Shown: positions 2,861 to 64,000, counted from the first letter of the stretch. The stretch is DNA of 64,000 nt from Eledone cirrhosa (GCA_964016885.1 OZ024741.1:70990001-71054000); one strand, 5' to 3'. The notes: generated by a model from the letters alone, not told the origin. Numbers and translations: made by a program.

Positions 2861-3476
2861 ACACACACACATATATATATTTATATATATACACCCACAC
2901 AAAACTATATATATATATATATACATACGGAGGTGGGTTCTTCTTACATTCCACCACATTTATTATACATGAACACTATCAGACTCTTAATATCATAATT
3001 GGCATTTATCTGAAGGTTACTGAGTGCAACTTCCTCAGGCTGAGGGAGACAGGGGCAATGTGGGGCATGGATTGTGAGTGTGTGAGTGCAGTTTTGTCTT
3101 TTGTCATTATGACACTTTCAATAAGTAAGTTGGCAAATAATACAAACAGACTACTTTACTTTCTCCTCCACCCAGATTGTTTTATGTTTTCCTTGGTGGT
3201 GGTCATGGTGGCCTCTATGGTGCACACACTCTCCTCTTCCACAATATTATATATAGTATTATATTGATTTTTTTTATTTGTCTATTTTATATTATATTCA
3301 GATGTTTTAATTTTGTTTTCCACATCTCCCTGCTTCTTTCCCTAACTCCTGCCCCACCCCAATTCCATGATCCCCACCCCGTCCCCTTGCCACATCAATA
3401 CCCAACCCCTACCCCAGGCGCCTCTCATACTTTCATCTGAAATCCAATCATTTTAACAATTATTAACCTTCTCTGT

Positions 3477-6400: not shown

Positions 6401-9400
6401 CACTATCACAAACATCACCACTACCATCATCATCACCACTGTCACAAACATCACCAGTACCATCATCATCACCACTATCACAAACATCACCAGTACCATC
6501 ATCATCACCACTGTCACAAACATCACCAGTACCATCATCATCATCACCACTGTCACAAACATCACCACTACCATCATCATCACCACTGTCACAAACATCA
6601 CCAGTACCATCATCATCATCACCACTATCACAAACATCACCACTACCATCATCATCACCACTGTCACAAACATCACCAGTACCATCATCATCACCACTAT
6701 CACAAACATCACCAGTACCATCATCATCACCACTGTCACAAACATCACCAGTACCATCATCATCATCACCACTATCACAAACATCACCACTACCATCATC
6801 ATCACCACTGTCACAAACATCACCAGTACCATCATCATCACCACTATCACAAACATCACCAGTACCATCATCATCACCACTGTCACAAACATCACCAGTA
6901 CCATCATCATCATCACCACTGTCACAAACATCACCACCACCATCATCACCACTATCACAAACATCACCACCACCATCATCATCACCACTGTCACAAACAT
7001 CACCACTACCATCATCATCACCACTATCACAAACATCACCAGTACCATCATCATCATCACCACTGTCACAAACATCACCACCACCATCATCACCACCACT
7101 ATCACAAACATCACCAGTACCATCATCATCACCACTGTCACAAACATCACCAGTACCATCATCATCATCACCACTGTCACAAACATCACCACCACCATCA
7201 TCACCACCACTATCACAAACATCACCACCACCATCATCACCACCACTATCACAAACATCACCACCACCATCATCATCACCACTATCACAAACATCACCAC
7301 TACCATCATCATCACCACTGTCACAAACATTACCACCACCATCATCACCACCACTATCACAAACATCACCAGTACCATCATCATCACCACTGTCACAAAC
7401 ATCACCAGTACCATCATCATCATCACCACTGTCACAAACATCACCACTACCATCATCATCACCACTATCACAAACATCACCACCACCATCATCATCACCA
7501 CTATCACAAACATCACCAGTACCATCATCATCATCACCACTGTCACAAACATCACCACCACCATCATCACCACCACTATCACAAACATCACCAGTACCAT
7601 CATCATCACCACTGTCACAAACATCACCAGTACCATCATCATCATCACCACTGTCACAAACATCACCACTACCATCATCATCACCACTATCACAAACATA
7701 ACCAGTACCATCATCATCATCACCACTATCACAAACATCACCAGTACCATCATCATCATCACCACTGTCACAAACATCACCACCACCATCATCACCACCA
7801 CTATCACAAACATCACCACCACCATCATCACCACCACTATCACAAACATCACCAGTACCATCATCATCACCACTGTCACAAACATCACCACTACCATCAT
7901 CATCACCACTGTCACAAACATCACCAGTACCATCATCATCATCACCACTGTCACAAACATCACCACCACCATCATCACCACCACTATCACAAACATCACC
8001 ACCACCATCATCACCACCACTATCACAAACATCACCAGTACCATCATCATCACCACTGTCACAAACATCACCACTACCATCATCATCACCACTGTCACAA
8101 ACATCACCAGTACCATCATCATCATCACCACTGTCACAAACATCACCACCACCATCATCACCACCACTATCACAAACATCACCACTACCATCATCATCAC
8201 CACTATCACAAACATCACCAGTACCATCATCATCATCACCACTGTCACAAACATCACCACCACCATCATCACCACCACTATCACAAACATCACCACTACC
8301 ATCATCACCACCACTATCACAAACATAACCAGTACCATCATCATCATCACCACTATCACAAACATCACCAGTACCATCATCATCATCACCACTATCACAA
8401 ACATCACCAGTACCATCATCATCATCACCACTATCACAAACATCACCACTACCATCATCATCACCACTGTCACAAACATCACCAGTACCATCATCATCAT
8501 CACCACTGTCACAAACATCACCACCACCATCATCACCACCACTATCACAAACATCACCACCACCATCATCACCACCACTATCACAAACATAACCAGTACC
8601 ATCATCACCACCACTATCACAAACATAACCAGTACCATCATCATCATCACCACTATCACAAACATCACCAGTACCATCATCATCATCACCACTATCACAA
8701 ACATCACCAGTACCATCATCATCATCACCACTATCACAAACATCACCACTACCATCATCATCACCACTGTCACAAACATCACCAGTACCATCATCATCAT
8801 CACCACTGTCACAAACATCACCACCACCATCATCACCACCACTATCACAAACATCACCACCACCATCATCATCACCACTATCACAAACATAACCAGTACC
8901 ATCATCATCATCACCACTATCACAAACATCACCACTACCATCATCATCACCACTGTCACAAACATCACCACCACCATCATCACCACCACTATCACAAACA
9001 TCACCAGTACCATCATCATCACCACTGTCACAAACATCACCAGTACCATCATCATCATCACCACTATCACAAACATCACCAGTACCATCATCATCACCAC
9101 TGTCACAAACATCACCACTACCATCATCATCATCACCACTATCACAAACATCACCACTACCATCATCATCACCACTGTCACAAACATCACCACCACCATC
9201 ATCACCACCACTATCACAAACATCACCACTACCATCATCATCACCACTGTCACAAACCTCACCAGTACCATCATCATCACCACTGTCACAAACATCACCA
9301 CTACCATCATCATCATCACCACTGTCACAAACATCACCACCACCATCATCATCACCACTGTCACAAACATCACCACCACCATCATCATCACCACTGTCAC

Positions 9401-11850
9401 AAACATCACCACTACCATCATCATCACCACTATCACAAACATCACCAGTACCATCATCATCACCACTGTCACAAACATCACCAGTACCATCATCATCATC
9501 ACCACTATCACAAACATCACCACTACCATCATCATCACCACTGTCACAAACCTCACCAGTACCATCATCATCACCACTGTCACAAACATCACCACTACCA
9601 TCATCATCATCACCACTGTCACAAACATCACCACTACCATCATCATCACCACTGTCACAAACATCACCACCACCATCATCATCACCACTGTCACAAACAT
9701 CACCACTACCATCATCATCACCACTATCACAAACATCACCACCACCATCATCATCACCACTGTCACAAACATCACCACTACCATCATCATCATCACCACT
9801 GTCACAAACATCACCAGTACCATCATCATCATCACCACTATCACAAACATCACCACTACCATCATCATCACCACTGTCACAAACCTCACCAGTACCATCA
9901 TCATCATCACCACTGTCACAAACATCACCACTACCATCATCATCATCACCACTGTCACAAACATCACCAGTACCATCATCATCATCACCACTATCACAAA
10001 CATCACCACTACCATCATCATCACCACTGTCACAAACCTCACCAGTACCATCATCATCATCACCACTGTCACAAACATCACCACTACCATCATCATCATC
10101 ACCACTATCACAAACATCACCAGTACCATCATCATCATCACCACTGTCACAAACATCACCAGTACCATCATCATCATCACCACTATCACAAACATCACCA
10201 GTACCATCATCATCATCACCACTGTCACAAACATCACCAGTACCATCATCATCATCACCACTATCACAAACATCACCAGTACCATCATCATCATCACCAC
10301 TGTCACAAACATCACCACTACCATCATCATCATCACCACTGTCACAAACATCACCAGTACCATCATCATCATCACCACTATCACAAACATCACCAGTACC
10401 ATCATCATCATCACCACTGTCACAAACATCACCAGTACCATCATCATCATCACCACTATCACAAACATCACCAGTACCATCATCATCATCACCACTGTCA
10501 CAAACATCACCACTACCATCATCATCATCACCACTGTCACAAACATCACCAGTACCATCATCATCATCACCACTATCACAAACATCACCAGTACCATCAT
10601 CATCATCACCACTGTCACAAACATCACCAGTACCATCATCATCATCACCACTATCACAAACATCACCAGTACCATCATCATCATCACCACTATCACAAAC
10701 ATCACCAGTACCATCATCATCATCACCACTATCACAAACCTCACCAGTACCATCATCATCATCACCACTGTCACAAACATCACCACTACCATCATCATCA
10801 TCACCACTGTCACAAACATCACCAGTACCATCATCATCATCACCACTGTCACAAACATCACCAGTACCATCATCATCATCACCACTGTCACAAACATCAC
10901 CACTACCATCATCATCACCACTGTCACAAACATCACCACTACCATCATCATCACCACTGTCACAAACATCACCAGTACCATCATCATCATCACCACTATC
11001 ACAAACATCACCAGTACCATCATCATCACCACTGTCACAAACATCATCACCACCACTGTCACAAACATCACCAGTACCATCATCATCATCACCACTGTCA
11101 CAAACATCACCACTACCATCATCATCACCACTGTCACAAACATCATCACCACCACTGTCACAAACATCACCAGTACCATCATCATCATCACCACTGTCAC
11201 AAACATCACCACTACCATCATCATCACCACTGTCACAAACATCATCACCACCACTGTCACAAACATCACCAGTACCATCATCATCATCACCACTGTCACA
11301 AACATCACCACTACCATCATCATCACCACTGTCACAAACATCACCAGTACCATCATCATCATCACCACTGTCACAAACATCACCAGTACCATCATCATCA
11401 TCACCACTGTCACAAACATCACCACCACCATCATCACCACCACTGTCACAAACATCACCACTACCATCATCATCATCACCACTATCACAAACATCACCAG
11501 TACCATCATCATCATCATCACCACTATCACAAACATCACCAGTACCATCATCATCACCACTGTCACAAACATCACCAGTACCATCATCACCACCACTGTC
11601 ACAAACATCACCAGTACCATCATCACCACCACTATCACAAACATCACCAGTACCATCATCATCACCACCACTGTCACAAACATCACCAGTACCACCATCA
11701 ACATCACCACTATCACAAACATCACCAGTACCACCATCAACATCACCACTATCACAAACATCACCAGTACCATCATTGCCACCACTATCACAAACATCAC
11801 CAGTACCACCATCAACATCACCACCACTTTCACAAGCACAACCACTGTAC
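3477..11850. repeat. 8.4 kb minisatellite, 36/39-bp unit ACCACT(G/A)TCACAAACATCACC(AGT/ACT/ACC)ACC(ATC)3-4
   Basis: Directly visible tandem array with degenerate edges. It explains the very long low-complexity ORFs. Confidence 0.98.
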
Positions 11851-12062
11851 CATCTCTGCTATTATCTTCACCCCTCCTACCCACCCTTAATATTGATACA
11901 AATGAGAGAATAAGTCTGTCTGTAATACAACATCTGTTCATTATTCCAGGTTACACTCACCAGAGCTAAAACAAAACAACTTCTACAATCACACAGAAAA
12001 AAGAAGATAGCAAAATATATACATTTCTTTATCTATCTAACCTAACCTGATAAAATAATTGT

Positions 12063-14263: not shown

Positions 14264-14447
14264 AATGAAAGGTATAGAAAGTATTGTAGCAAGAAGCCAA
14301 CAGTATTCCATAATATATATATATATATATATATATAGTAATAATAATAAATTTGAAGACTAAAATCCAAAGAGGGCTCGATAAGGATAAATATATATCA
14401 AATATATAAGAACCCTAGAGCAAATATTTATTAAAATAACAGATTAA

Positions 14448-14498
14448 AGTTTAAGCAAAGAATCGCTGCTTTCACCCTTAACGGGATCTTCTGAAACT
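14448..14498 (-). ncRNA. Hammerhead-like ribozyme variant (CAGAAGA core), left arm
   Basis: Reverse complement reads AGTTT-CAGAAGA-TCCCGTTAAGGGT-GAAA-GCA..TGC-TT-AAACT. Confidence 0.5.
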
Positions 14499-15322
14499 AA
14501 CAAAGTCAATCTGTAAACGCAGAACTGGATATTTCAAAAAACGTTGCAACCGGAGGAAGACAGGAAGACGATACTTTGGTTCGTGGAAACGTTCGCTGGC
14601 TAAGAACGGGAAAAAACGAATATATTACGTCATTAATAGGAGCGGTGAAAAACAATACGCGCAAAGACAGAACCACGTTTATAGTATAATAGAGGTCGTA
14701 GACTAATGTTCTCTTAGGTGGTGCATAGAGACGTTCTCTGGCGATGAACGAAAAAAACGAAGATAATACGTCATATGTGGAGCGTGGAGAACAATAGCAC
14801 GCAAAGACAAAACCACGTAAATTCTAACTAGGAGATCGAATGAATCTACGCTACGGAGTTAAGAACAAAGTAAATAAATACAATACAGAAGTAATAGAAA
14901 TAAATAAATACATACACGCAAACAGAAACGTACATACACAAGCGGAGATTCATTCGGTCTCCTAGTTAGAATTTAGTCTACGACTTCTGCTATACCATTT
15001 ACGTGGTTTTTTCTTTGCGTGCTATTGTTCTCCACGCTCCACATATGACGTATTATCTTCGTTTTTTTTTCGTTCAGCGCCAGAGAACGTCTCTATGCAC
15101 CACCTAAGAGAAAATTAGTCTACGACCTCTATTATACTATAAACGTGGTTCTGTCTTTGCGCGTATTGTTTTTCACCGCTCCTATTAATGACGTATTATA
15201 TTCGTTTTTTCCCGTTCTTAGCCAGCGAACGTTTCCACGAACCAAAGTATCGTCTTCCTGTCTTCCTCCGGTTGCAACGTTTTTTGAAATATCCAGTTCT
15301 GCGTTTACAGATTGACTTTGTT

Positions 15323-15373
15323 AGTTTCAGAAGATCCCGTTAAGGGTGAAAGCAGCAATTCTTTGCTTAAACT
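15323..15373 (+). ncRNA. Hammerhead-like ribozyme variant (CAGAAGA core), right arm
   Basis: Stem I AGTTT/AAACT, core CAGAAGA, stem II CCC/GGG, GAAA, stem III AGCA/TGCT, UH site = UU. Confidence 0.5.
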
Positions 15374-15509
15374 CTAATCTGTTATTTTCATAAATATTAT
15401 ATATATATATATATATTATATATTATATATATATATATTATATATTATATATCTAAGGCGGGTAAAATTCCCGAGATCCATGGACGAGTTCTCTCCAGCG
15501 GTCTCTGTC

Positions 15510-16351
15510 TCTGGACTATCTGGCGGGTTTTCTACAGCTGGATGCCCTTCCTAACACCAACCACATTTACAGTGTGGGGCTGGGAGGTTTTTACCGTGTT
15601 GCCTACACGGCCACATTACAGCGTGAACTGTGTGTTTTTTTGTCGTGACACCTACACGATCTCATTTGTTTCGGCCTGGATGTTGTGGCACCAACATAAC
15701 TTTACATTGAAAGGGGCGGTGTGGATGGGGTGGGGGTGGTGGGACGGGGGTGTATTTTGTTAGAGATGCCTACTGACTGTAGTAGGTTTTACTTTGTATT
15801 TAGGTAAGGCGGGTCTTCTCTATTACTGAGTACCACCAAAGGTCTCGGTCCAGTGACATTGTCTTGGAGAGGTGTAAGCGTGTGAGGTCGGAATTTATCA
15901 TGTCGTCCCAGGTTTTTCTGGGTCTGCCTACTCCGTGGCTACCGTCTATCTTTATTGCCCTGCACTTTGTTATACAGCTGTCGTCATTCATGCGCAACAT
16001 GTGACCATACCAACATAGCCTTCTCTCGAGTAAACAACATCTGATACCTCTTATTTCTAATTTTTTCCTTAGTTCGTTTATGCTTAGCTGTTCACGTATA
16101 TTACTATTACACATCCAGCGGAGCATGCAAGCTTCGTTCCTCTCTAGTCTGCGTATATCCTCTGCACACAATGCCCAGGTCTCACTGCCATGCAGCATTG
16201 CTGTTCGTATGCAGGCATCATACAACCTGCTTTCATTTTTAGGGAGAACCCTTTAGCGGCTAATAGTGGTATAAGCTCTCTGAACTTTTTCCATCCAGTT
16301 CTGACTCTAGCTACTGTACTTTCAGAGCACCCTCCCCCACTGGTGATTTTG

Positions 16352-16352
<1 letters not shown>
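15510..16352 (-). mobile_element. RTE LINE 3' fragment, same subfamily as 37262-40799 and 45221-47058
   Basis: ORF 15800-16225 (MLHGSETWALCAEDIRRLERNE, GRPRKTW) and a 3' UTR nearly identical to 37357-37645. Confidence 0.93.
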
Positions 16353-16416
<64 letters not shown>

Positions 16417-16491
16417 ATTATATATATATATTATATATATATATTATATATATATATTATATATATATATTATATATATATATTATATATA

Positions 16492-16549
<58 letters not shown>

Positions 16550-16688
16550 CCAAAAGTTAAACAAGGTTCATTGATTAATCAATGAATATAGTTTTACAAT
16601 AGATTAGAAGCACTCAACAATAACGTTTTCTGGAGTTATTAATATTAATTCAAAATATTAATAAATATAGACATTCAACGTAATCAAA

Positions 16689-16760
16689 ATATATTTTATT
16701 ATATGTATTTCGAAGGTACTGTGCTGTTTTTTCAGTACGTCCTCATCAGATAAAATATAT
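16689..16760 (-). ncRNA. Type I hammerhead ribozyme
   Basis: ATATATTTTAT-CTGATGA-GGACGTACTG..CAGTACCTTC-GAAA-TACATA-TA-ATAAAATATAT. Confidence 0.8.
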
Positions 16761-16850
16761 AAATTGATGTATGACATACCTCAACTGTGGCAGACTGCCA
16801 AGACTGGAATTGAACCATCAGCACAATTGAGGTATGTCATACATCAATTT

Positions 16851-16922
16851 ATATATTTTATCTGATGAGGGCGTACTGATAAAACAGCACAGTACCTCCG
16901 AAATATATATAATAAAATATAT
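16851..16922 (+). ncRNA. Type I hammerhead ribozyme
   Basis: 11-bp stem I ATATATTTTAT/ATAAAATATAT, CTGATGA at 16862, stem II GGGCGTACTG/CAGTACCTCC, GAAA at 16900, palindromic stem III ATATATAT, predicted cleavage after A16911. Confidence 0.88.
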
Positions 16923-16962
16923 TTTGATTACGTTGAATGTCTATATTTATTAATATTTTGAA

Positions 16963-17013
<51 letters not shown>

Positions 17014-17211
17014 CATACATACATATCATCATCGTTTTTACAACCAATTTTCTATGCTGGCATGGGTTGTATATAGGATGTTTTGAGACAATGTTTTATA
17101 GTCAGACATACATTACGGCAGCAAACCTCGGTGTTGCTTCTTATAACATGCAGGGATATAATGTATCTCATCTAAAAACTGGGATATACACAACATAATA
17201 TCCTGTGTATG

Positions 17212-17253
<42 letters not shown>

Positions 17254-18239
17254 CACACATAAATAAATACAGATACATACAGATACATACATAAACACCA
17301 ATGTTTTGACTTATCACAACACTAATGAGGCAAAATGATTTTCAGAAAATATATATTTTCCTTTCCTTTTTTCTTCCTCTTTACACCCCTACACACTTCC
17401 TTCATCTATCCTTTTCTTCTATCAAAGACATACTTATTCTTTATATTATTTTATTGGTGTCTATCATTATACTGTGGCCAGGCTGTAGTACCACCTTATT
17501 TACTTAGAAGCTGAACGAATATATAAAACTATCCTAGAATTAATGGTTTTCATTTTTTTTTTTTTTTGCATCGCTAATTTCTTATATAAACCTGTCTGGG
17601 AAGTCTTTTGCTTGACAACTCTCTTTATTTCTATCATCACCAATTCTCATTGAAGACACAAGAGAAAAGGAGGAGGAGGCGGCGGAGGAGGAGAAGAAGG
17701 GAAAAGGAAAAGAAAAAGAAAAAGAAAAAGAAAAAGAAAAAGAAGAAGAAGAAGAAGACAGTAGAAGGCAGAGGAGGAAAAAAAGAAAGAGGAAGTTAAA
17801 ATCTATGGTACAGACAATCAAAATCTATTGGACAGACAATCAAATAGGCCTTCTAACAAGATGGCTGTGATAATGAGAAGGAAAGAAAGAATGCAATAAT
17901 CATTGCTAATCAGATTTCAGAGAGAAAATGTTTCCAAACAAACAGTATGCAATTTTGAAACTAAAAGTCAATAAACTGAAAACACAAATGACATATACAT
18001 AGTGTTTAGTGTTCAATCATTGATTAGTTATTGAAAAAAATATAATTTTATTTAATAATTTTTAAACTACTTTTTGGTTTGATTTGCAGTAAAAAAAATA
18101 AATGCTATGTTGAATAGAATGAATAGAAATAGAAAAATAAGGAATCTATATAAAAGGTATACCACTAAATTTATAGCACATCATTTGTACAGAAGATGAA
18201 ATACATAGAAATAAGAAATATAGTGGTAATAATTTCAAA

Positions 18240-18999
18240 CATTACTGATATAACATTATCAACATGGCATTGTCAATACAGCATTACTGTGCAATATTAT
18301 TGACATAGTCTTGTTAACACAGTTTTATTAACAAAGCATTATCAACACGGTGTTGTCAACACAGCATTACTCATGTGACATCATTGACATACTTTTGTCA
18401 ACACAGCATTATTGTCATAGCATTATCAACATGGCCTTGTCAACACAGCATTATTGTCATAGCATTATCAACATGGCCTTGTCAACACAGCATTATTGTC
18501 ATAGCATTATCAACATGGCCTTGTCAACACAGCATTATTGTCATAGCATTATCAACATGGCCTTGTCAACACAGCATTATTGTCATAGCATTATCAACAT
18601 GGCCTTGTCAACACAGCATTATTGTCATAGCATTATCAACATGGCCTTGTCAACACAGCATTATTGTCATAGCATTATCAACATGGCCTTGTCAACACAG
18701 CATTATTGTCATAGCATTATCAACATGGCCTTGTCAACACAGCATTATTGTCATAGCATTATCAACATGGCCTTGTCAACACAGCATTATTGTCATAGCA
18801 TTATCAACATGGCCTTGTCAACACAGCATTATTGTCATAGCATTATCAACATGGCCTTGTCAACACAGCATTATTGTCATAGCATTATCAACATGGCCTT
18901 GTCAACACAGCATTATTGTCATAGCATTATCAACATGGCCTTGTCAACACAGCATTATTGTCATAGCATTATCAACATGGCCTTGTCAACACAGCATTA
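18240..18999. repeat. 42-bp minisatellite (~14.4 identical copies from 18395) preceded by diverged 14-bp monomers
   Basis: Unit TTGTCAACACAGCA-TTATTGTCATAGCA-TTATCAACATGGCC. Confidence 0.97.
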
Positions 19000-19959
19000 A
19001 ACCTTAAGTAAAAAAATAAATAAATAAAAAAATTCAGTGTTCTATGCCAGTGCACAAAAGATTTAAATAATAAATAGATAAGTATAATGAGGAAATTTAA
19101 GACATTTTATTTGTCTTACACAATTTTCAACAGAAGAAACATGAAATAAGGAAAGAATTGCAAGAATTCCGCTTAAGCTCCAAATACATAGAAATATATC
19201 TATATATTACATCTTCAGATGCTAAGAAAACACTTACAGTACTCTTAATACTTAACAGCAGTGATCTTATTGTTGTTGTTGACAGTGTTTAGCTTCAGGT
19301 CAATTTCACTGAGTAAATCTATGAGGAAAAGGTATTTTGTATTTTGAGAGGGTGCCACAATAAAATTCCACAGTGCACTCAGTGGAGTTTTTAGAATGTA
19401 TGTAAGTGAGAATCAAGTCCCTGGTCTGTCTCAGAGGTCAGTAGCTCCAATTAAGTACTGAATCATTCTGTGACAACCCGTCCAGCCCTTGTTAGCAGGG
19501 AAAACAGATGTTAAATGATGATGATGATATATCAAGCACTACATTGTCCAATATATCCTTCATTTACTGCTGTGTTTATCCAGTTAAGAAAGGGTACACC
19601 ATATACCTGTGTGTCATAAAAAGGGCTAATGCTAGAAAGGACATCCAGCCATAAAACATTATCTCAAAAAAGACCCCATGAAGCCTGCTTTAGCAAGGAA
19701 AATGACCTTAAAATGCTTGTTGCATCCTTTAAATCATAGGGTAAGATGTGATTCTGGAAAAGAAGCAAAGATTTGGCTGCTATTTCTAGCTGGTACAGTG
19801 ACCACCAAGAGGCTACCTCTTTGCTCAGTGGACGTGTGTTTAACTCGCTGACAATGTTTGTTTAATTCACTGCTAAGCAATAACTACAATAACTACAATA
19901 ACACCATCACCACTACCACTACTACTAGTAACAACAACAACAACAACAACAACACTACC

Positions 19960-19996
<37 letters not shown>

Positions 19997-21539
19997 ATAT
20001 AACTAAGTACTACAATAACACTTATTATTTGGAATTATTTACTTTGAAGCATCTCAATTACCTCATACTGTCGAAATAACATTCAAAGTAATTCACTTGA
20101 CCGAAACAAATGTCTTCTTATTTGCACACAGATCATAGAAAACAGTGTGTGATCGTCGATAGTGAAAGAATGTGTCTAGTTGCAAAACATGTTCGAAGGA
20201 ATGAAAGAAAGAAAGACCACATGCATAAATATAGCACAGATTCTAATTCTGATGTACAGAATAACGGTCAAAGTAGATTAGTTTCTTTGAAGACAATCTG
20301 GTTAGAATTACAGTTCGGTGAAGTAAGAAGAGTATCCAGACCAATTTCTGTGCTCTCTCTTTGAAATCGGTAAATTAAGCTTCATATAGTCGCCGCCTCA
20401 CTTCAAATGGTTAACAATTGTGGTGACACAAGGTCACCTTTCAATTAGATTTTGGATATTTTCAGCGATAAATTATGACATCTATAAGATAGAATTTCTG
20501 TTTGTTTGCTAATTGGTTTTTGCAATTCTTTGAAATTTCAATTCTATCATCATAGATGTTTATCATACATCATATATTCATTCATGTATGTGTGTATTTA
20601 TGTATATATGAAGAATTCTCTGCCCTACTGTTAAGCTTCTACTGTGTTGATAGCAAATGAGCACACTTTCTATGTAAAATTCAACAGCTATAAGAAAGTT
20701 ATTTTGATTACTAATCGCCTAAGAATTTCTAGAGTGAGAATGTGTAAACATTTTTTTACTAACTTCTGTGACAACTATGCCATCAACATCATCATCATTT
20801 TATGCTGGCATGTGTTGGACAGGTCATCACACTCTGAGATTAGCCAGGTAAATAAAGCATGTATTGCTCATATGACATAGTTTTGGCAAGGCTTCTATTG
20901 ACCATTTTACAGAGTGTACTAAGTGCATTTCATCATGGCATCAGCACTACCTCTTTTGAAAGTAAACTGAGTGGGTCCAAGCACTATCACTTTATAGAGT
21001 GTACTGGGTGCATTTTATCTTGGTACCAGTATAAACTTACTCAACAAATACTGGTGCCAAAAAATAGTATCAAGTGAAATATACACATACACACACGCAT
21101 GCCCACATACATACATACACACAAACACACATGCATGCACACATACATACACAAACACACATGCATGCACACACAGCTCTGTTTCCAACACTAAATATTT
21201 CTGCCACATAATACATAGTATTTTATTAGTCAATCAAAAGCCCTCCACTACCCACACACAAGTGTGTGTGCATGATAGAATCAAGGCATGTTAGGGGAAA
21301 ATGACACCATTGCTAATTTACCACAGATTAACTCGTCTTAATACTCATTGCTAATTTAATTGGTAGCAATCGCATTCATGAACAACACTGTAGTAATCAA
21401 TTTTAATGAAGCTGGGAGGCTTCACATTGCACATGAATGCAATAAACTAAGGAATTATCATTTCAAAGTTTGTTTTTTTGTAGCTTACATTCTTCCAAAT
21501 ACTTAATTAAAAAACATTGATATAACAATGATGATAATA

Positions 21540-22100
21540 ATAATAATGGTTTCTGATTTAGGCACAAGGCCAACAATTTTTTTTTTTGGGGGGGGGGGGG
21601 TCGATGAAATTGACCCCAGTGCTTAAAAGGTATGTTATTTTATCAAACCCTGGAAGAATGAAAGGTAGAGTTGGCCTCAGTGGAATTTGAACTCAGATGT
21701 AAAGGGCTGTAACTAAATGCTGCAAAGCCCTTTGTCCAATGCACTAACAATTCTGCCAATCTATCACCCTTATAATAATAATAATAATAATTGTTTCTAC
21801 TATTGGCACAAGGCCAGCAATTACCCAGTGCATTACTGGTACTTTATTTTATCGACCCCGTAAGGATGAAAAGCAAAGTTAACCTCTGTGGGATTTGAAC
21901 TCAGAATGGCAAGAGCCGTAACTCTATGCGTCAAAGCATGGCGTCCGACCCTCTACCGATACTGCCAATCCACCGCCCTATATCACCCTTAGAATAATTG
22001 TTTCTACTTTAGGCACAAGAACAGCAATTTGAGGGGGAAGGGAAAGTCGATTAAATCGCCACCCTAGTGCATTACTGGTGTCTTATTTATCGACACCAGA
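21540..22100 (-). mobile_element. Cluster of three Nin/Deu-domain-like SINE copies (third is partial)
   Basis: Reverse complement of GAGTTCAAATCC..TTTCATCC..GGGGTCGATAAAATAAAGTACCAG..CCTTGTGCC..AGAAACAATTATT, repeated at ~21548, 21790 and 21995. Confidence 0.8.
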
Positions 22101-22186
22101 TAACATTTAAACAATGTTCTGTCTTTCATAGGTTTATGTGAAACACTCTATAAGGTAATTCATAAATAATATATTAGTGTGTGTCA

Positions 22187-22470
22187 GAAGGTATGTGCCT
22201 TAGTGGTTAGGGTGTTTGTCTCATGATCAGAAGGTCGTGAGTTTGATTCCTGGACCAAGCAGAGTGATGTGTCCTTGAGTATGACGCTTTATTTTCACAT
22301 TGCTCCACTCCGCTCAACTGGCAAAAATGAGTTGTACCTGTGATTGAAGGGGCCAGCCTTGATACACATTGTCACCCAGAATTTCCTTGAGAACTATTTT
22401 AAGAGTGCACATGGCTGTCGAATGCTCAGCCTTATACATGTTAATTTCATGAGCAGGTAATTTTGTTGAT
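22187..22470 (+). mobile_element. tRNA-derived SINE
   Basis: TAGTGGTTAGG A box, GAGTTTGATTCC B box, then a GTGTCCTTGAG body motif. Confidence 0.7.
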
Positions 22471-22789
22471 CACTGAAATACATTCAAAAACAACAAAGAT
22501 CTTGTGTGTGTGTGTGCGTGTGTGTGTGTGTGTGTTTGTGTGTGTGCGTGTGTGCGTGCGTGCGTGCGTGCGTGCGTGCATGCGTGTGTGTGCTTATTAC
22601 ACCGGTATGGACATGTGGTGCATATGGATGATGAACACTGGGTGAAGAAGTGACATGAGCTGCAGTGGAACTTGGGCAGGGTTGATCTCAAAACACTGAA
22701 CCTCTCTCACACACACACATACAGTCGTACATACACACAGGTGTGACACTATTTACTCATCACATTTTCATTTCACCCGATACAATCAA

Positions 22790-23346
22790 CAAGGATCCTG
22801 AATTACTGAATACCATGATAACTGGAAATGAGACACGGTTGTCTCATTTCCAAAATCAAGGTGATGCTGACTGTTTTCTTTTGCTACCAAGGTGTTATGC
22901 ATCATGAATATGCCCTAGAAGGAGAAACAGTTACAAAGGAGTACTCTCAGGAAGTCCCCCATTTCTGTAATGCAATTTGGTGAAGAGAGTGGATCTGTGG
23001 GCCTTGCAAAACTGGCAGATCATCATTAATAATGACAATACTCCAGCTTATTAATCAGTTGATCCAAGGTTTCTTGGCAAAGAAAAGCATTTCACTCATT
23101 CGTTAGGATCTCAAGACATGATTGCTTCTAAAAAAAACTGAGAGGACATCAAGCAAACTGCAAATGGAACATCTGAGAAGCATTCCAGAAGAAACATTCC
23201 AGATGTGCTTCAAATAGTGGAAAGATCATTGAGCTAAGTGTGGAGAGAAACAAGGAACCTACTTCAAAGGGAGTTAGCAATTGAACCCCACCAGGTACTT
23301 ATTTCTTTAACAGCCTAATGTCGGATACTTTTTCAACAGACCTTGT
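22790..23346 (+). mobile_element. Degenerate mariner transposon, 3' part
   Basis: Translated remnants ITGNETR (cf. ITGDETW), KIKVMLTVFF..GVMHHEY..GETVTKEY and NDNTPAY (cf. HDNAPAH). Ends in a TIR-like GGATACTTTTTCAACAGACCTTG-TA. Confidence 0.8.
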
Positions 23347-23478
23347 ATATGTACACATATACATACATGTGTGTGTTCTCATACAGCTATACATATACAT
23401 ACAGTGTATATATATGTACATGCACATATTTACATATACATTTGTATATACATGTGAGCATGTACATCTCTCTCTCTT

Positions 23479-23552
<74 letters not shown>

Positions 23553-25480
23553 GTATGTATGCGCACATATATACATGTGTGTGTGCATTGAATGTTTAAC
23601 ACTGGAAAAATAAGATAGTGAAAGGGCAAACCTATTACATACCAGCATAACAATATCATTTATTGTCAAAGTTAACCTTCCATTTCTTTTATCCAACATC
23701 CTTTATACAATACAGTTGGAAAGTTATGATACAGATGATGGATCATCAGAGATTGTAACACTTAACATTTACTGTTACATATTTGTTATCTTGTAAACAA
23801 CTAATAGTTGATATTACCACTCCACCACACTAAAATAGACCACTGACATCACCATCTCCACCCTCACAACCAATACTACCACCTCACCCCCACACTCACT
23901 ACCAATGCTACCACCCTCACTGCAAAATCTTTCTAAATTCTCACTTATTTTCAAAATTATTTGAAAAATCACAGACAGTATTATATTTCATTAGACATAG
24001 GGTTATGAAAGCTAAACACATTCACTACCGTATTTTTAATGTTTCAATTAATTTTGAAAATATTCAAAATTTTGAAAGAATTTAGTAAAATAACTTTTCC
24101 ATTAGTATACTGGTATTTAGAACATAAATATTTCTTGAATAAAAAATATGATTGAAGGTCTTGATATAAATATGAAAATAAAAAAACAAACAAAAACAGG
24201 CAGTTTTATAGCATACAACCAAGCGTGGGTGGGGTTCAAGCAGGTTGATGTCAAAAGGGTTAAACCAGACATGTTTTGGCAGTAGAGAGATCATAGAAAC
24301 TGGAAGGTCAATGACCAGACATTACAACACATATTGCTACACTCAAGATGAAGTCATTTAGACAGCTACCTTATGTCTACCTCTCTCTCTTGTTACTGTG
24401 TTTCTCTGTGTGCCTGTCTGTCTGACATCTAAACATATCTGGGTGTGTATTTTAACTCTGTACAGATTTCTAAACTATGCAAAGAATTGAAAACTTATGA
24501 TGAATAGATGATGGTGATGGTTATGATGGTTGTAGTGGTGACAAGTGACAATGAGGATTATAATTTAGTTGGAATTCTCTCTCACCCACTCTCTCCCTTT
24601 ATTTGTCTGTCTGACTATCTGACTCTCTTTTTCCCCCTCCCTCACTTTCTGTTCATCATCTTTATTTAGTCAAGCTGGTGATGATGGTGGTGGTGGTGGT
24701 GGTGGTGGTGTTTATCATTGTAATATTGATGATGGTGTTGGTAATAATGATGATGGTGTTGGTAATAATGATGACGGTGGTGGTGATGATGATGATATAT
24801 CAACTTGCTCTATTATTATATATCATAGTGTGTGTATGTTGGGGGGAGGGGGCTTAAAGTTAATTTACCTAGTCATCTAATACCTGTAATATATCAAATA
24901 CACTTCTTGTCAAACACCTTACATTATTATTTATTTCTTTTCTTAGAATGTCTCCTTCTGTTGGTTTTTACATATTTTTTCCCAATATTTCAACATTGAA
25001 ATTACATCAATCCTAGGAGGATCATTCACTGTTCAGTTAGCAATAATTAAAATATGAAAAAATATATCAAGAACACCCCCATACCACTCACACACACCAA
25101 AGAAACACCATAGATAAATAAAAAAAATAGAAACCCCAGAATGCTTCAAAACAAAGTATTGTGGGAGATTTTTTTTATCAATTATGTATTTATTTATTTA
25201 CTATTTCTGGAACAATCTATAGAAAATTGATCTTAATTGAAGATATCAATCATCATTTAATTTCATTAGATAATGTATTTTGTCTTTCAGTCTTTCATTC
25301 CTCCACAATATCAATTTACAGGGAAAGAAGAGAAAGATGAGGACAAACAACAACAATAATAACAAAGGTAAAAAAAATATGGTTGCCATTGACAATGACA
25401 TAGAATTATAATAAATGTGATGTTACTGATAATAATAATGATTTGACATCAACTGCCAGATTGTCTCTCATTATTTTTTT

Positions 25481-25663
25481 GGATTGGCAGTATCAGTAGA
25501 GGGTCGGACGCCATGCTTTCCAGCATAGTTACGCCCCTTTACGGTCTGAGTTCAAATCCTGCCGAGGTTGACTTTGCCTTTCATCCTTATGGGGTCGATA
25601 AAATAAAGTACCAGTAATGCACTGGGTAATTGCTGACCTTGTGCCTAAAGTAGAAACAATTAT
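25481..25663 (+). mobile_element. Nin/Deu-domain-like SINE
   Basis: B box GAGTTCAAATCC, core GCCTTTCATCCTTATGGGGTCGATAAAATAAAGTACCAG, tail AGAAACAATTATT. Confidence 0.85.
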
Positions 25664-25748
25664 TTTTTTCCTTTTGTAATCTTTGTTTCATATATATATA
25701 TATATATATATACAATATTAAATAAATGGAAACTATATTTATAAAACC

Positions 25749-25825
25749 ATATTTATTTCATTATATATATTTCGGGGATATCATATTAACAATATGCTAT
25801 GCCTTCCTCAGACAAAATACAATAT
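25749..25825 (-). ncRNA. Type I hammerhead ribozyme (mirror copy)
   Basis: Reverse complement of 25933-26009. Confidence 0.72.
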
Positions 25826-25932
25826 AAACAGTTTTATAGATAAATAGATTCGACATACCGTTATAACACCGACTTCCATTTGAAGTCGGTGTTATAACGG
25901 TATGTCGAATCTATTTATCTATAAAACTGTTT

Positions 25933-26009
25933 ATATTGTATTTTGTCTGAGGAAGGCATAGCATATTGTTAATATGATATCCCCGAAATATATATAATGA
26001 AATAAATAT
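25933..26009 (+). ncRNA. Type I hammerhead ribozyme
   Basis: ATATTGTATTTTGT-CTGAGGA-AGGCATAGCATATT..AATATGATATCCCC-GAAA-TATATA-TA-ATGAAATAAATAT. The first pair of stem II is mismatched (A-C). Confidence 0.72.
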
Positions 26010-26335
26010 GGTTTTATAAATATAGTTTCCATTTATTTAATATTGTAAATTTACTCCAAATATTTGTCGAGTGCTTTTATATCAGTTATAAATATTTACT
26101 AGTTGTTAACCCAACAATTTTAAATATAACTTTCCATGTATATATATATATATATATATATTTATTGTCATCATTTCAACTTTTCCTGGGTTGAACAAGA
26201 CTTTCTGAGGCAATGTTTTACTGCTGGATGCCCTTCCTGACACCAACCCTTTTAGTCACCTCTTACCACATGCAGGCATACAGTTTGCCTATTTTATACT
26301 GAATAGACATAGCCATATATATGTGTGTGTGGGTA

Positions 26336-32782: not shown

Positions 32783-33463
32783 CCATCATCATCATTTTTA
32801 TGTTTCCCACATGCTTCTCCCCCATATATATATATATATGGGGGAGAAGCATGTGGTGTGGACGGGGAAGAGAACATTTAGAATTTCTGCATTAATTAAA
32901 AGCAAGTATTTCAAAACTTAATGAAATACAAAGAAATCAAAGATTAAAAACAAACCAAACAACCACTGCAGGCACCATCACTGCCAACACTGCCATCCCT
33001 GCCACCACCATCCTCTTGCCCCCTAACATTGCCCCCCCCCCCCCCCCAATTACCACTGCTGCTGGCTGCAGCCACCATCACCCTCCCCTCCCTCCTTCTC
33101 CAAGCCTTGTTTTTCCCCAATAAATATTTCCAAATGAAATTCTCAACATATGTCATATGATTAAATATTAATGAACTGAACTGATGTGTGTGTGTGTTTG
33201 TGTGTGCGTGTATGTCGTATATGTATAGTGTTTTAAATAACACTATACTTAAAACATCCAAACATTAACTGAAGGAGTACTCAATACATGTGGATAGTGT
33301 GTGTGTGTGTTTGTGTGTATTAGGATGAAAGCAAAAATTGTTTGTTTAAACCTTTAATCTGTGTTAATAAATATTCACTCTAAGGGTTTATATATATATA
33401 AATATATATATATTTATTTATATATATATATATTGAAAGGATATATATATATATATATTGAAA

Positions 33464-33509
<46 letters not shown>

Positions 33510-33536
33510 TTATATATATATATATATATTGAAAGG

Positions 33537-33574
<38 letters not shown>

Positions 33575-35163
33575 ATTGAAAGAATATATATATATATATA
33601 TATAAAACACTTTTGAGTTCTTTCTGGATTTTGATCTTTGTATCTATTATCATTAATTTAATGTGAGAGTGTGTGTTTATGTGTGTGTGTGCATGTGAGA
33701 AAGTGTGTGTATGCGAATGTGAAAGTGCATGTGTGTGCGTATGTGTGTGAATATGTATTTCTGCAGCAAATACATTAGCTTTCTAAGTTGTTATCATGTT
33801 CTCTTTGTAGTTTGTTTTCTATGGAGAAGAGGGTGGTGGCGCAGTGAGAAGGTGTGTTTGTCCCCACCCCCATAATTTTCTATAGAGTGGTGGAGATGGG
33901 AGGAGGAGAGAGAAGGTTTGTGTGATCCCCACCCACAATATTTCTGTTGTTGTTCCATGTCTTCCTTAGACTTTCAGGGTGAGAGTTGTAGATTAGTGCA
34001 ACCATATGTCATATAATTAACACTAAACTAATTAAAACCTTTCTTGTATGTATATATTGGGTGGTAATGATAGTGGTGGTTCTGGTGAAGTGGTGGTGGT
34101 GGTGTTGCTGGTAGCGGTGCTGCTGAAGAGATGATTATTGATGGTGGTGAAGACGGTGGTGGTTATGATTGTAGTGGTGATGGTAGTGGTGGTGGTCCTG
34201 GTTGAGGTGGTGGTGGTAGTGGTGGTGGTGTTTCTGCTGCTGCTGCTTATGGTGGTAGCAATGGTGGTTATGAGGGTGATGGTTTTCTCGGAGATAGTAA
34301 AGATGGTGGTGGTGAGGATGACAATGGTGAAGGTGATAGCAGTTATGATGGTGGTGGTGGCACTGATGATGATGAAGGTCTTATAGAAAATAGACTCCCT
34401 TTTGAAATAAATACTCCATTATTTATTTTATTTATATATCTATTTATCTATTTATTTATTTTACACTTGTACAGATGCTGTAAAAATTCTCTATCCACTT
34501 CAAAATACCCCTACCCTAATTTCCATACTTCCTCACTCAACTTTCATACACCTACCCTTTCTTCCATGCCCCAACTCCCATACATACACCCATATTTCCC
34601 TACCTCCATTCTTGCTTACATACACCCTCTTCAAAATACCACCACCCTCACTTCCATACACCCACCTCTGTTCTATACACACACCTCTCCCTAACCTGAC
34701 ATACACATCATGGTAGCAAATTGGCAAAGTCATAGAGCATAAGTCAAAATGCTTTGCAGTATTTGTTCTGGCTCGATGCGCTTCCAGTTCAAATACTATG
34801 GCATTCAACTTTACTTTTCATCCTTTTGGAATCAATAAAATAAAGTACCAGACCAAACAAGAGCAGTGGATTGATGGAATTGTTAGAGCACCAGAGAAGA
34901 TGACTTGTGGTGGTATTTATTCCAGCTCTTCGCTTTCTGAGTTCAAATCATACTATAGCTTACTTGGAAAGGAGACTTAATCTGTTGGCCAGTATAACAC
35001 CACCAACAGACCAGAGCAGTGATTTGGCAGAGCATGGGACATTAGTTCCTGCTCTCTATACTCTTGTTTCAAACCCCACTAATGTCAATATTGCCTTTTA
35101 AAGTTAATAAAATACAGTAGCAGTCTAGATTTCCAACAACAACCCTGAATACTGAATTCCATG

Positions 35164-40200: not shown

Positions 40201-40799
40201 GCCTCCATGGATTTCGTCGTAGCCGTCACAATGTTGTCCAACGTGACCATTTAGGTCGCCTGCAATAATTATATAGTCACTGTCGGTTATTTGGGAGGTA
40301 GTGAGCATCAGTGTCTCATAGAATCTATCTTTTATAGTGCCGGGCAGTCCGGATTGGGGTGCGTACGCAGATATTACTGTCACCGTAGTTCTATTGAGGA
40401 CAAGTCTTATTTTAATTATTCTGTCGTTCACTCTATTTACGTCTATTATCTTATCTGCCCACTTTTCTGCTACCATGATTCCTACTCCACCCAGCCCATT
40501 GTCATTTCCCACCCAGAAAAGCTTATAGCACCATTTTTTACCCACAATGAATCTAGCAGACCCACCCCTCCACCTGGTCTCTTGAATACAACAAACATCG
40601 ACCTCCTTACGTTCAAGCATTTCTACAACCTCGTTAGAGCGACCCTTTAAGATGCCTACATTCATGGTACCAACTCTGGAGTTTGGGATTGCGTTTGGAG
40701 GGTGGGAGCGGTGGGGCGCGGGGGGAGATGGGGTTATGTTAGCCATCCGCGGCCGAAACAAAGAGGAGTGCTCGCATTCTCGTCCATGAGGTGAATTTG
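37262..40799 (-). mobile_element. Near full-length RTE LINE (APE + RT + PHD-like finger), disrupted; TSD TCCAACAT
   Basis: APE motifs GTMNVG, CIQETRW, SAYAPQ and GDLNGHVG, plus RT motifs. One frameshift (~40060) and stops at 38924, 38600 and 37961. TCCAACAT occurs at 37254-37261 and 40800-40807. Confidence 0.96.
37646..40746 (-). pseudogene. RTE endonuclease-reverse transcriptase ORF broken into five pieces
   Basis: ORF fragments 40057-40761, 38924-40027, 38600-38866, 37961-38569 and 37646-37960 are collinear. Confidence 0.93.
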
Positions 40800-40805
40800 T
40801 CCAAC

Positions 40806-40807
<2 letters not shown>

Positions 40808-40848
<41 letters not shown>

Positions 40849-42940: not shown

Positions 42941-43099
42941 TTAATACAGATTAAAATTTAAGCAAATAATTTCTTAGCTTAAACTTTAATCTGTACTAAT
43001 AATAAATATTTACTCTACGGATTTATATATACTTATGTATATACTATCCTTATCGAGCCCTCTTTGGATTTTGGTCTTTGTTTTTATTACTACTATAAT
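42941..43099 (+). mobile_element. Short fold-back Penelope-like terminus, same family as 14341-15398
   Basis: Hairpin ACAGATTAAAATTTAAGC/GCTTAAACTTTAATCTGT and tail TATCCTTATCGAGCCCTCTTTGGATTTT matching the reverse complement of 14362-14390. Confidence 0.75.
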
Positions 43100-47122: not shown

Positions 47123-47170
<48 letters not shown>

Positions 47171-49585: not shown

Positions 49586-49586
49586 G

Positions 49587-60695: not shown

Positions 60696-60729
<34 letters not shown>

Positions 60730-60764
60730 CGATATTAATAAATGGAAACTATATTTATAAAACC

Positions 60765-60840
60765 ATATTTATTTCATTATACATATTTCAGGGATACCAC
60801 ATTAAATTATGGTATGCCTTCATCAGACAAAATACAATAT
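60765..60840 (-). ncRNA. Type I hammerhead ribozyme
   Basis: ATATTGTATTTTGT-CTGATGA-AGGCATACCATA/TGTGGTATCCCT-GAAA-TATGTA-TA-ATGAAATAAATAT. Confidence 0.85.
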
Positions 60841-62521
60841 ATAACAGTTTTACAAATAGCTTTGACGTACCCTTTTAAAATACAACCATTAGTTTTGGAG
60901 GCTGTCTGGATAGTGATTTGTTTACATTGTTTTAATAAGTCATAGTGTTAAGCACAATTAGAAAAAGACGGAGAGAAAGAAAAAGAAAAAGACGGAGAGA
61001 GAGAAAAGAACAAAGACGGAGAGAGAGAAAGAAAGAGAAAGAAACCCTGGAGAAATATCGGAGAGAGAGAGAAATGTATGGAGAAAAGAAAGAGATAAAT
61101 ACAGATAGGAGAAAATAAAAAATAAAAAATAAAAAATAAAAAATAAAAAATAAAAAATAAAAAATAAAAAATAAAAAATAAAAAATAAAAAATAAAAAAT
61201 AAAAAAAAATAAATAAAAAATAAAAAATAAAAAATAAAAAATAAAGAAAAGGAAGAAATAAGAGAAACAGGAAAGCAACAGAGGGATATCAAGTCATCAT
61301 ACAGAGAGAGAAACACTCAAGAGAGAGAAATACTATATAGAGAGGGGGGGGGGGGGACAATGAAAATTTTACGTCATGTCATATTAAGTTAAGTTAACAA
61401 TTTATATGAAATGAATAATAAAAATATAAGTATCAATATTCATGAATGGGACATAGATATATAATATGAGAAATTAAACATTGTTCAATAATGACTATAT
61501 GTTTAGTTTAGAAACTTGAGATCAATATACCAAAATCTGAGTTCAAAATATACCCTTGCTATAGAGATCAGTATTTTATGCAAAGACATACAAATATATA
61601 TGTATATATATATATACATAGATACGCATGTCCTGAAAATAGAAATTATGTTTACTCAAGCCAACAATATAGCCATACAAAACGTAAATGATTTCTCTTA
61701 ATCACTGCTATACATTCCTTGTGTTATAAAAATTTCACAGTATATATATACAAATATATACGATTAATATATACGATTACCATTCATGTGCTTAATATTA
61801 TGCATATCTCCAACATACCTCTCAACCAGATAGATATATACACATACGTATATACACACACATATGTATAAATAAATATTTGCGTGCATCGTCATGCATC
61901 ACTCATGTATATATACAGACATATATAGACACAAAAAAAAACCTATAACACTTTTTATGCATGTTAATATACACATATGCATTTGTATAGAGATAATCAA
62001 ATATCAATATATTACTAAAGGATTATAACTTGTAAATATAACCATAACAATATAAATCTAAAATACCAAAGGAATATATTTTGGAAATGTAACTGTATCA
62101 GTATAGACATAAGGAATCTAGAAATATCAAAGCATTAAATATCTTATACTATAGAGTATCTTAAGTTAAAATAATATGTTTTATATATTTATTATAGAAA
62201 TTTATCCTACGTATATCTCAATCAAGATATTGAAAGGGTAGACTTATGAAAGTTATGAGAAGCTATCATAATCAAAACAAATAAATAAAAATGATTTAAA
62301 AGATTTAAAAAACCCAATGATTCTACAGATAACCTTATATTTAGTATAGAAATTTACCTTACGTATATTTTATTTAATACATTGGAAGTATAGACATTTT
62401 AGAGTAGTCTATTATATCCTTGTTTATATTTAGGAAGAAAGTTTAAAAAGAAAAAGGTGAAGGAATCTAATGATTTATCAACAGGTTCCATATATTAACT
62501 AAAATTGCTTAATTAATTATA

Positions 62522-64000
62522 CTACATTTTAAATTTATATTTATATTTAAACGTTGAGTTCAATCTATGTCTGCAGCAACTGAATAAATTGTTCCTTAGA
62601 TTAAGGGAATTTTTGGACTTTAATATAAAGAATATTTCTTCAATACAAAGACCACAATTCTCTGAAGAGGAATTAAAAGGAGTAGCTTTTGAAATAATAT
62701 TCCAATTCATCGAATATTTAATATTATCTCGTTTTAGGTCCCATAGTAGGCTAGATAGCGAAGTTGAAGATTTTTTGTTTGGATCTGTGAAAGAATTCTT
62801 ATGATTATTGAAGCGAAATTTAAATTCTGTAGAGGTGGAACCAACATAGTTAAATGAATTTAAATTAGTGTTAACATTACAATTGTACACTACATTTTTA
62901 GCTAAGCAGTTGTTGTTTAACGGACAGTTAGATTTATTTCTACAGTTACAGTTATATAATTGAATATTGTTTGGGTTATTATTGGTATTTTGGTTAGGTT
63001 TTAAATTCCTATTATTAATTCTATTAATATTTTGTGCTAAATTTTTGGTGGACGAGTAAGTTAATTTTATAGTGTGTCTATTAAAAATTGAGTAATATTT
63101 ATGTGTTCTAGGGAAGCGTGTGTCAAGAGCTTTAAAGAATAGTTTAGCAATAGGGGTTTTAATATTTAGAGAGAAAGGGGGAGCAAACCATAATATATTT
63201 CTAGTTCTATTTCTTTTTCTGCTTTTGGAATTATTGTAATGTTTTCTACTATAGTTGTTAAAGTTGTTACCGTAATTGAAATTGTTATTATTTTGGTTAG
63301 TTTGCTTATTATTATTATTATCGATGTATTTAATTTTATTTCTATATCCAGCTCTACCTAACGCTTCGTTGTAATACTGCGCTTTTTCATCAAATATATT
63401 TTTATTAGATGAAATTCTTGAAATTCGTTCTTGAACAGAGTTCACTATAGTATTTTTAACAGATCTGGGGTGATTAGAGTTAAAGTTGACATAATTCAAG
63501 TTCTCATTTAGTTTGTGAAATGGATAGTGAAGACATGTGTTGAGATTTAGTGTTACATCAAGAAAATTGACTATTCTATGGTTATTCTCTATTTCTATTT
63601 TTAGATTAAGGTAATTAAAAAATTGTATAATTTGTTTTCTTTTTCTATTTAGTTCACAGCTATTATTTTCTATAAGTAAAAGCATGTCATCCCGAAATAA
63701 TCCTCCGGTTACACCTGGTATTTTTCTATGTAGCGAATTAATTATAAATAGGCCCACAAGGTCCGTTACCTGAGCTGAGTCTGATGATCCCATAGTTATG
63801 TCGAAATTATTATTTCTATCTGCTCTAGTCCAGAGTTGGTTATTAAATTCTATCAATGTTTTCCTTGCCGATAATATAATGTGCATTTCATTGCTAGTTA
63901 GGTCAGTATGTTTAAATGCGTAATTTAGTGCCTTATTCAGTAGATTAGGAGTGATAGATGAATAGTAGTTAGCAATATCCAGCTGAATAAACTTATTATT
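62522..64000 (-). CDS. Penelope-like RT + C-terminal GIY-YIG endonuclease (5' partial, open to window edge)
   Basis: The frame stays open upstream of 63886 (FIQLDIANYYSSIT). Motifs ITMGSSDSAQVTDLVG, GLFRDD, VNFLDVTL, SNHP, CNCRNKSNCPL, VVY..YVG..RFNNH, CGLCIEE and CRH. Confidence 0.93.
   Translation of the reverse strand, partial: NNKFIQLDIANYYSSITPNLLNKALNYAFKHTDLTSNEMHIILSARKTLIEFNNQLWTRADRNNNFDITMGSSDSAQVTDLVGLFIINSLHRKIPGVTGGLFRDDMLLLIENNSCELNRKRKQIIQFFNYLNLKIEIENNHRIVNFLDVTLNLNTCLHYPFHKLNENLNYVNFNSNHPRSVKNTIVNSVQERISRISSNKNIFDEKAQYYNEALGRAGYRNKIKYIDNNNNKQTNQNNNNFNYGNNFNNYSRKHYNNSKSRKRNRTRNILWFAPPFSLNIKTPIAKLFFKALDTRFPRTHKYYSIFNRHTIKLTYSSTKNLAQNINRINNRNLKPNQNTNNNPNNIQLYNCNCRNKSNCPLNNNCLAKNVVYNCNVNTNLNSFNYVGSTSTEFKFRFNNHKNSFTDPNKKSSTSLSSLLWDLKRDNIKYSMNWNIISKATPFNSSSENCGLCIEEIFFILKSKNSLNLRNNLFSCCRHRLNSTFKYKYKFKM

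Follow-up and report, generated by a model that had tools for sequence, protein, structure and literature searches.

The window analysed here is a stretch of 64,000 nucleotides from Eledone cirrhosa (GCA_964016885.1, OZ024741.1:70990001-71054000). It holds palindromic units at 14.3, 16.5 and 25.7 kb, an old single arm, a short stub and part of an ORF-bearing element at 60.7 kb (Table 1). A first-pass annotation had described the three units as pairs of inverted arms, one abutting the TA repeats and its partner carrying a tail; the inverted arms were found at these places, and the flush and tailed ends are borne out, with a tail of ~85–95 nt. The arms are identical at 393/400 positions in unit 1 (14423-14822 vs 14997-15398), 145/150 in unit 2 (16640-16789 vs 16822-16971) and 166/166 in unit 3 (25711-25876 vs 25882-26047). 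Tailed and flush arms overlap by 3 nt in unit 1 and by 4 nt in unit 3. The 5′ start of the unit 2 flush arm coincides with an initiator-like site (16794) preceded by a G. The stub at 42941-43099, once counted as a fourth such unit, is palindromic and tailed, but it is without a hammerhead (its fold-back point falls inside helix III) and does not lie in a TA tract. The 60.7 kb element extends ~840 nt beyond the window, where it is closed by a short inverted tailed arm.

Table 1. Features of the palindromic units and related elements in the 64-kb window.
Feature	Position	Strand	Details
Unit 1 (family U1), tailed arm	14334..14946	(-)	5′ end ~546 nt upstream of flush point
Unit 1, tail	14334..14422	(-)	
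Unit 1, bulged hairpin motif (family U1)	14373..14421	(-)	behind first end point
Unit 1, flush arm	14944..15398	(+)	5′ end ~455 nt upstream of flush point
Unit 1, hammerhead-like fold	15307..15382	(+)	variant core CAGAAGA (15328-15334); mirror copy in left arm
Unit 1, initiator-like run-off site	15323		inside hammerhead-like fold of flush arm
Unit 2 (family U2), tailed arm	16545..16789	(-)	core 16749; hairpin motif 16609-16636; tail 16545-16639
Unit 2, flush arm	16793..16971	(+)	hammerhead 16852-16921
Unit 3 (family U3), flush arm	25711..25885	(-)	hammerhead core 25811
Unit 3, tailed arm	25882..26139	(+)	core 25947; hairpin motif 26053-26075; tail 26048-26139
Old U1 tailed arm	33322..33649	(+)	TA-interrupted; ~78% identical
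U1 stub (83%)	42941..43099	(+)	30-nt inverted flush arm plus tailed arm; hairpin motif 43012-43061
Hydra-clade element, long flush arm	60728..64000	(-)	hammerhead core 60826; 3′ UTR; RT-EN frame 62522-64000

The units had been read as inverted, 5′-truncated ends of Penelope-like elements (PLEs) with type I hammerheads, which is right, and as members of a single family that the 60.7 kb element had seeded, which is not. The 25.7 kb arm is indeed homologous to the 3′ end of that element (86% over ~160 nt); instead of one family, however, there are three plus a sister subfamily. The 60.7 kb element stands as sister to U3, with 82% identity over the ORF, and the family proteins are ~39% and ~45–55% identical to its protein. 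Judged from these sequences, the three units are assigned to three separate Hydra-clade PLE families with thousands of copies in a genome of 3.0 Gb.

The ORF domains of the U3, 60.7 kb and U1 frames were judged by motifs against the alignments in Craig et al. 2021 (PMC8557442), and Pfam matched no family for the Hydra proteins of these elements. A single ORF (737 aa in a tandem U3 monomer) carries the RT followed by a C-terminal GIY-YIG-type endonuclease. RWR and DKT motifs are present in U3 and U1, and the 60.7 kb copy has DKT and is truncated before RWR. The CxCX5C linker occurs as CNCRNKSNC, CNCRKRVDC, CNCRDRSKC and CNCRRKSEC, the CxxC and CxH motifs are present and CCHH is absent. The Hydra clade, as characterized in the relevant sections of PMC8557442, likewise combines RW-basic, DKT, CxCX5C and CxxC/CxH motifs, no CCHH, a canonical hammerhead (here in U3 and U2 but not in U1), a (TA)n target, an inverted 5′-truncated copy and a one-sided tail; U2 too shows the features given in section 11 of that paper. 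Among 31 printed tail ends, 28 enter TA and the other 3 continue as a tandem element. Three points differ from the clade as described there: the tail is ~90 nt here vs 30–40, monomers are 3.3–3.9 kb vs <3 kb, and one family has a fixed variant hammerhead core. In tandem copies the tail continues through the 5′ leader to the ATG, and so is the start of the next monomer. Non-LTR retrozymes, as defined in the portion of 10.64898/2026.07.22.740005 consulted, consist of head-to-tail tandem monomers with a hammerhead in each; this class was rejected, since the units here are head-to-head and isolated. The inverted pLTR plus tail is already published, and the cassettes are a known kind of insertion product, formed by new Hydra families.

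The annotation also placed a hammerhead reading outward in each arm. This holds with canonical cores at 16862(+)/16749(-) and 25947(+)/25811(-), but in the 14.3 kb unit the helices surround the core CAGAAGA. The division runs through the families: the core is canonical in 207/208 U3 arms and 83/95 U2 arms, and CAGAAGA in 87/89 U1 arms. An Rfam scan listed 120 matches at E ≤ 1, none of them to a hammerhead. The putative fold is instead supported by covariation: in an alignment of 16 sequences hand-picked from these loci, 8 of 9 helix II pairs have changed on both sides and 93.8% of cells are paired. Isolated hammerheads fold weakly as single strands (z from -2.6 to +0.8), and these values were not used as support. 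The type I fold with a long helix II and a short palindromic helix III resembles the metazoan PLE hammerheads treated in Cervera and De la Peña 2014 (PMC4209133), where opposite-strand pairs 100–700 bp apart are already reported. In the same account, ribozymes with a 2-bp palindromic helix III need a second sense copy; helix III here is of this 2-bp type, and the ribozymes are classed as dimer-dependent.

Counted with exact patterns for the two kinds of 3′ end, flush ends number 1,122 in U3 and 12,630 in U1, and tailed ends 1,186 and 12,003, respectively (reversed controls: 0). The arms end at two fixed 3′ points ~90 nt apart, and an inverted unit has one of each: 95 of 96 units over the three families pair a tailed with a flush end. 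For U3, pairing was scored on the first 92 flush and 100 tailed matches listed, all on one chromosome, in which outward-facing clusters were tail plus flush in 58/59 cases, tail plus tail once and flush plus flush never. All 30 U1 loci examined (29 scored, one with a mutated tail) and all 7 U2 loci examined were tail plus flush. The two-armed build is not universal. In the same U3 sample, 61 matches stood single and 3 clusters ran in the same direction; a closer look at 20 of the singles showed a clear inverted partner of the opposite type for 12 but not for 8, and one cluster, as noted, joined two tails. A fourth, short family, found through the hairpin motif described below, shares the tail-plus-flush build, with an inverted flush arm beside 12/34 tailed arms.

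How the two arms relate to each other was assessed in 57 U3 units, with arm lengths read by hand. The longer arm, by a margin of >20 nt, is the flush one in 19 units and the tailed one in 13, with the remaining 25 near equal; some tailed arms (L177, L180, L182, L201) stop short of the flush point. Both arms carry the same haplotype in 47/52 pairs vs 6.9 expected, so both were copied from a single RNA or a single source. Copying of a single strand folded back on itself, either as cDNA snap-back or as self-priming on antisense RNA, would also give arms of a common haplotype, as well as the 25 near-symmetric units and the small palindromes at some junctions. Such a copy must lie within its template arm, though, and this is violated in 19 of the 57 units, the 60.7 kb element included: each arm has sequence absent from the other (up to >4 kb), so neither was copied from its partner. 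Since either arm may be the longer one, simple fold-back is excluded; it is contradicted as a general route, may account for some symmetric units, and overall has little probability as the explanation. An assembly fold-back artefact was rejected as well, because the arms differ in length while the outer point is fixed, and many have diverged.

Junctions, roughly scored in 56 units, were blunt in 5, overlapping in 25 and with inserted letters in 26. Some of the inserted-letter junctions represent subfamily differences. Palindrome centres differ from locus to locus, even between 99%-identical copies, and with fold-back points varying in this way the cassettes are insertion products rather than units copied whole. 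The opposite reading, palindromes spreading as non-autonomous elements (MITE- or retrozyme-like), draws on the many units of similar length near 430 nt and on two loci with one centre in common. However, the run-off site described below accounts for the length peak, and the two loci (L129/L232) belong to a subfamily whose own junctions vary, for which reason their shared centre was rejected as a unit copied whole. No identical loop and junction common to a family of loci was seen, and we give this reading the smallest probability of those considered. The suggestion in the first-pass annotation of non-autonomous mobile units thus fails for whole palindromes and survives for something else: short single-arm RNAs appear, from their sequences, to be mobilised in trans, for example a 39-copy U3 derivative that lacks the hammerhead core and still builds the same units.

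Random truncation points, which the annotation associated with inert by-products, were not what we found: truncations concentrate at an initiator-like site. Of the U2 arms, 299 start exactly at the A of the initiator-like TCACT and 227 run on (a control C showed 5 point changes). A G precedes this A in 51 of the first 100 U2 matches listed (hand count), and a G precedes the corresponding U3 site in 23/48. In samples of short arms chosen by their 3′ ends, 35/78 U3 arms have their ends in the 14 nt from the site onward, compared with 4 in the 14 nt preceding it (a few duplicates included), and for 28/81 U1 arms the end lies no more than 12 nt from a TTAGTT site. An extra G was seen in 6/8 U1 arms exactly at TTAGTT vs 9/52 elsewhere; for roughly half of the extra Gs viewed, the partner arm could have been the template. 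In L1, an extra G is described as the mark of capped run-off copies (PMC11702581, in the part consulted), TCACT has been noted in the rotifer pLTR (sections of PMC3846280), and an internal promoter is reported for Penelope (sections of PMC2377424). A pile-up at the ribozyme cleavage site was absent in the same arms (≤1/81 in U1, 0/78 in U3). As the arms span the ribozyme and show no pile-up at its cut site, the template was likely uncleaved. The cleavage-and-circle model, as presented in PMC4209133, instead predicts ends at the cleavage site.

A bulged hairpin motif, RCTC-Y...R-TY-GAGY-RCT, sits 2–7 nt behind both end points in all three families. It occurs exactly twice per monomer in the 3.9 kb U3 and the 3.3 kb U1. 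The pattern itself was derived from U1 and U3, which makes a comparison with shuffled sequence circular; a second copy was then predicted for U2 and located in a tandem U2 copy. In a set of 140 distinct motifs that are nonetheless related, the outer pair reads A-T in 98, G-C in 35 and mixed in 7, and the inner pair C-G in 69 and T-A in 51, a pattern of covariation that marks the motif as a candidate RNA stem with a variable upper helix. By eye, the published consensus of Hydra-1_Ajap has two motif copies ~60 nt apart, ahead of the ATG, Hydra-2_Ajap and Hydra-2_Amil have one copy each, behind the hammerhead, and Hydra-1_Crog and Hydra-1_Obim match in part; the Hydra-1_Amil consensus ends before the motif position. 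Hydra-1_Ajap is a published sea-cucumber element.

The motif bears on a different account of the two end points, in which the tail end is the start of both cDNAs, one arm is later cut at the flush point by the endonuclease, the resulting end is joined to the TA tract, and the motif serves as a DNA recognition site. Resolution by the endonuclease has been put forward for the tail (PMC8557442, in its discussion of these structures), the Penelope endonuclease is cited as needing the tail to recognise its own DNA (in the corresponding part of PMC11167929), and the same one-of-each pattern is predicted. Against this, the motif covaries as an RNA stem would, its second copy lies past the tail end and is missing from inserted tails, and the in vitro starts reported in PMC11167929 map to both tail boundaries. 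We regard this account as unlikely, if still the strongest competitor.

Taken together, the cassettes are single Hydra-clade PLE insertions in (TA)n, with a tailed and a flush copy joined head-to-head, and were probably made by two target-primed reverse transcriptions of one RNA. The RT-endonuclease would bind both hairpins and cut both strands of the TA tract; each DNA end would then be primed at a different start point on the same RNA, and the two cDNAs would be united by end joining. Where priming occurred near the mRNA 5′ end, the cDNA would run off at the capped start, giving palindromes of 250–450 nt. The hammerheads would be passengers, copied from an uncleaved template and locked off in read-through transcripts. 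Going one step further, the two hairpins may position the subunits of a dimeric RT-endonuclease so that one capped, uncleaved RNA serves as template at both cut ends, with the tail as the spacing between the hairpins; we consider the chances of this about balanced. Just as evenly poised is what it would entail: an inverted pLTR as the normal product, a ribozyme dispensable for insertion and any short RNA with two such hairpins as a mobile passenger.

In vitro work on a relative, Poseidon PAc (Frangieh et al. 2024, PMC11167929), agrees with much of this in the results consulted: two internal start sites bound the tail, both strands are cut and extended, ribozyme activity is dispensable and the RT-endonuclease is a predicted dimer. 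Those results name no repeated hairpin and assign no strand to the start sites, which did not differ between strands, a point against the proposed reading; the one-of-each rule, like the other evidence given here, is genomic. Each start point here also has a 2–4 nt AT match to the target, unlike in Poseidon PAc. The Adineta vaga Penelope (Arkhipova et al. 2013, PMC3846280, in the sections seen) shares head-to-head pLTRs with a tail on one and TCACT in the pLTR; self-priming on an antisense template is favoured there, against which the arm lengths found here argue. L1 twin priming, as set out in the part of PMC11702581 cited above, shares a second priming from the other DNA end, an end-joined junction and a run-off extra G. 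Its second priming site is variable and its two parts barely overlap, whereas here the site is fixed and both arms copy one stretch.

A function for the cassettes themselves had also been put forward, as selected modules for double-stranded RNA (siRNA or ADAR substrates) or for strand-independent cleavage. Read-through RNA would give a near-perfect hairpin of 150–400 bp, and copies number in the thousands. The insertion route already accounts for the structure, however, and mutations build up in the arms without sign of paired repair. Nor do folding models leave room for the contest between hairpin formation and self-cleavage that the annotation envisaged: the hairpin is favoured over the hammerhead by 77–108 kcal/mol, and with the ribozymes facing outward, transcription always passes through the antisense arm before it reaches the sense one. 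The predicted hammerhead pair probability is 0.000 in whole or nascent palindrome transcripts, and in single arms the hammerhead costs only 5–13 kcal/mol. Modelled folding thus excludes self-cleavage, strand-independent or otherwise, in the full palindrome, and the palindromic helix III would in any case require the second sense copy described in PMC4209133. Selected modules of either kind are very improbable, more so than fold-back copying, while double-stranded or small RNAs as incidental by-products of the palindromes are possible on these models.

The origin of the inverted and tail structures is called open in PMC8557442, which in the sections on the Hydra clade describes neither a pairing rule nor a hairpin motif nor a run-off site. 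In the open literature searched, bioRxiv supplements apart, we likewise found no mention of the pairing rule, the independent lengths and shared haplotype of the arms, the run-off site with its extra G or the twin hairpin. Seen as modules of host function, the cassettes are ordinary. Their value lies in the young copies, which in their thousands give a rule of one tail, one flush end and one RNA, and in the hairpin, a candidate cis signal that is testable in the existing in vitro system. They also bear on the role of the hammerhead, given that the core is non-canonical in a family with >12,000 exact end matches and that a coreless derivative still spreads. Copying from two start points onto both cut ends would explain the inverted repeats and one-sided tails of PLEs.

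In the Penelope-like family U1 (more than 12,000 exact end matches), the run-off site, an initiator-like site where many arms stop, lies within helix I of the variant hammerhead, 5 nt before the variant core (for example, site and core together at 15323-15334 of the window).

Two short elements stand beside the families U1-U3. The first (L293-L304; 39 matches genome-wide, exact or with one mismatch) derives from the family U3 and carries, in place of the hammerhead 5′ half, approximately 100 nt of other sequence with a fixed 5′ end of its own. No ORF was seen in this element, and it still forms units consisting of a tailed and a flush arm. The second is a fourth short family sited in TA tracts (L008, L053, L101, L109, L114, L164 and others), with arms of about 60 nt, a tail of 80 nt and, 5 nt behind the flush point, the same bulged hairpin as in the U1-U3 families. 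A canonical hammerhead core was absent from the stretches of this family that were examined, and no parent element was found. Hydra units are also inserted in the TA flanks of units from other families, resulting in nested clusters of different families (L091, L099, L104, L232 and L388).

Other retroelements and repeats in the window
Feature	Position	Details
RTE-like non-LTR retrotransposon copy	888-2552	RVT_1 and PHD domain matches
RTE-like non-LTR retrotransposon copy	37573-41369	
RTE-like non-LTR retrotransposon copy	45222-47920	
LTR-retroelement-like region	48121-52556	
Its gag and protease-RT frames	50443-52556	DUF7041 and RVT_1 matches
Inverted pair in this region	48121-49582	353 nt
CAT/CAC-rich repeat array	3300-11900	About 8.5 kb; repeats of 36-39 nt each
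Inverted duplication	35231-37216 and 53007-54983	About 2 kb; 98-99% identity

Some of the RTE-like copies form long inverted pairs, and several frames are open in the CAT/CAC-rich array. The two copies of the inverted duplication lie 16-17 kb apart.
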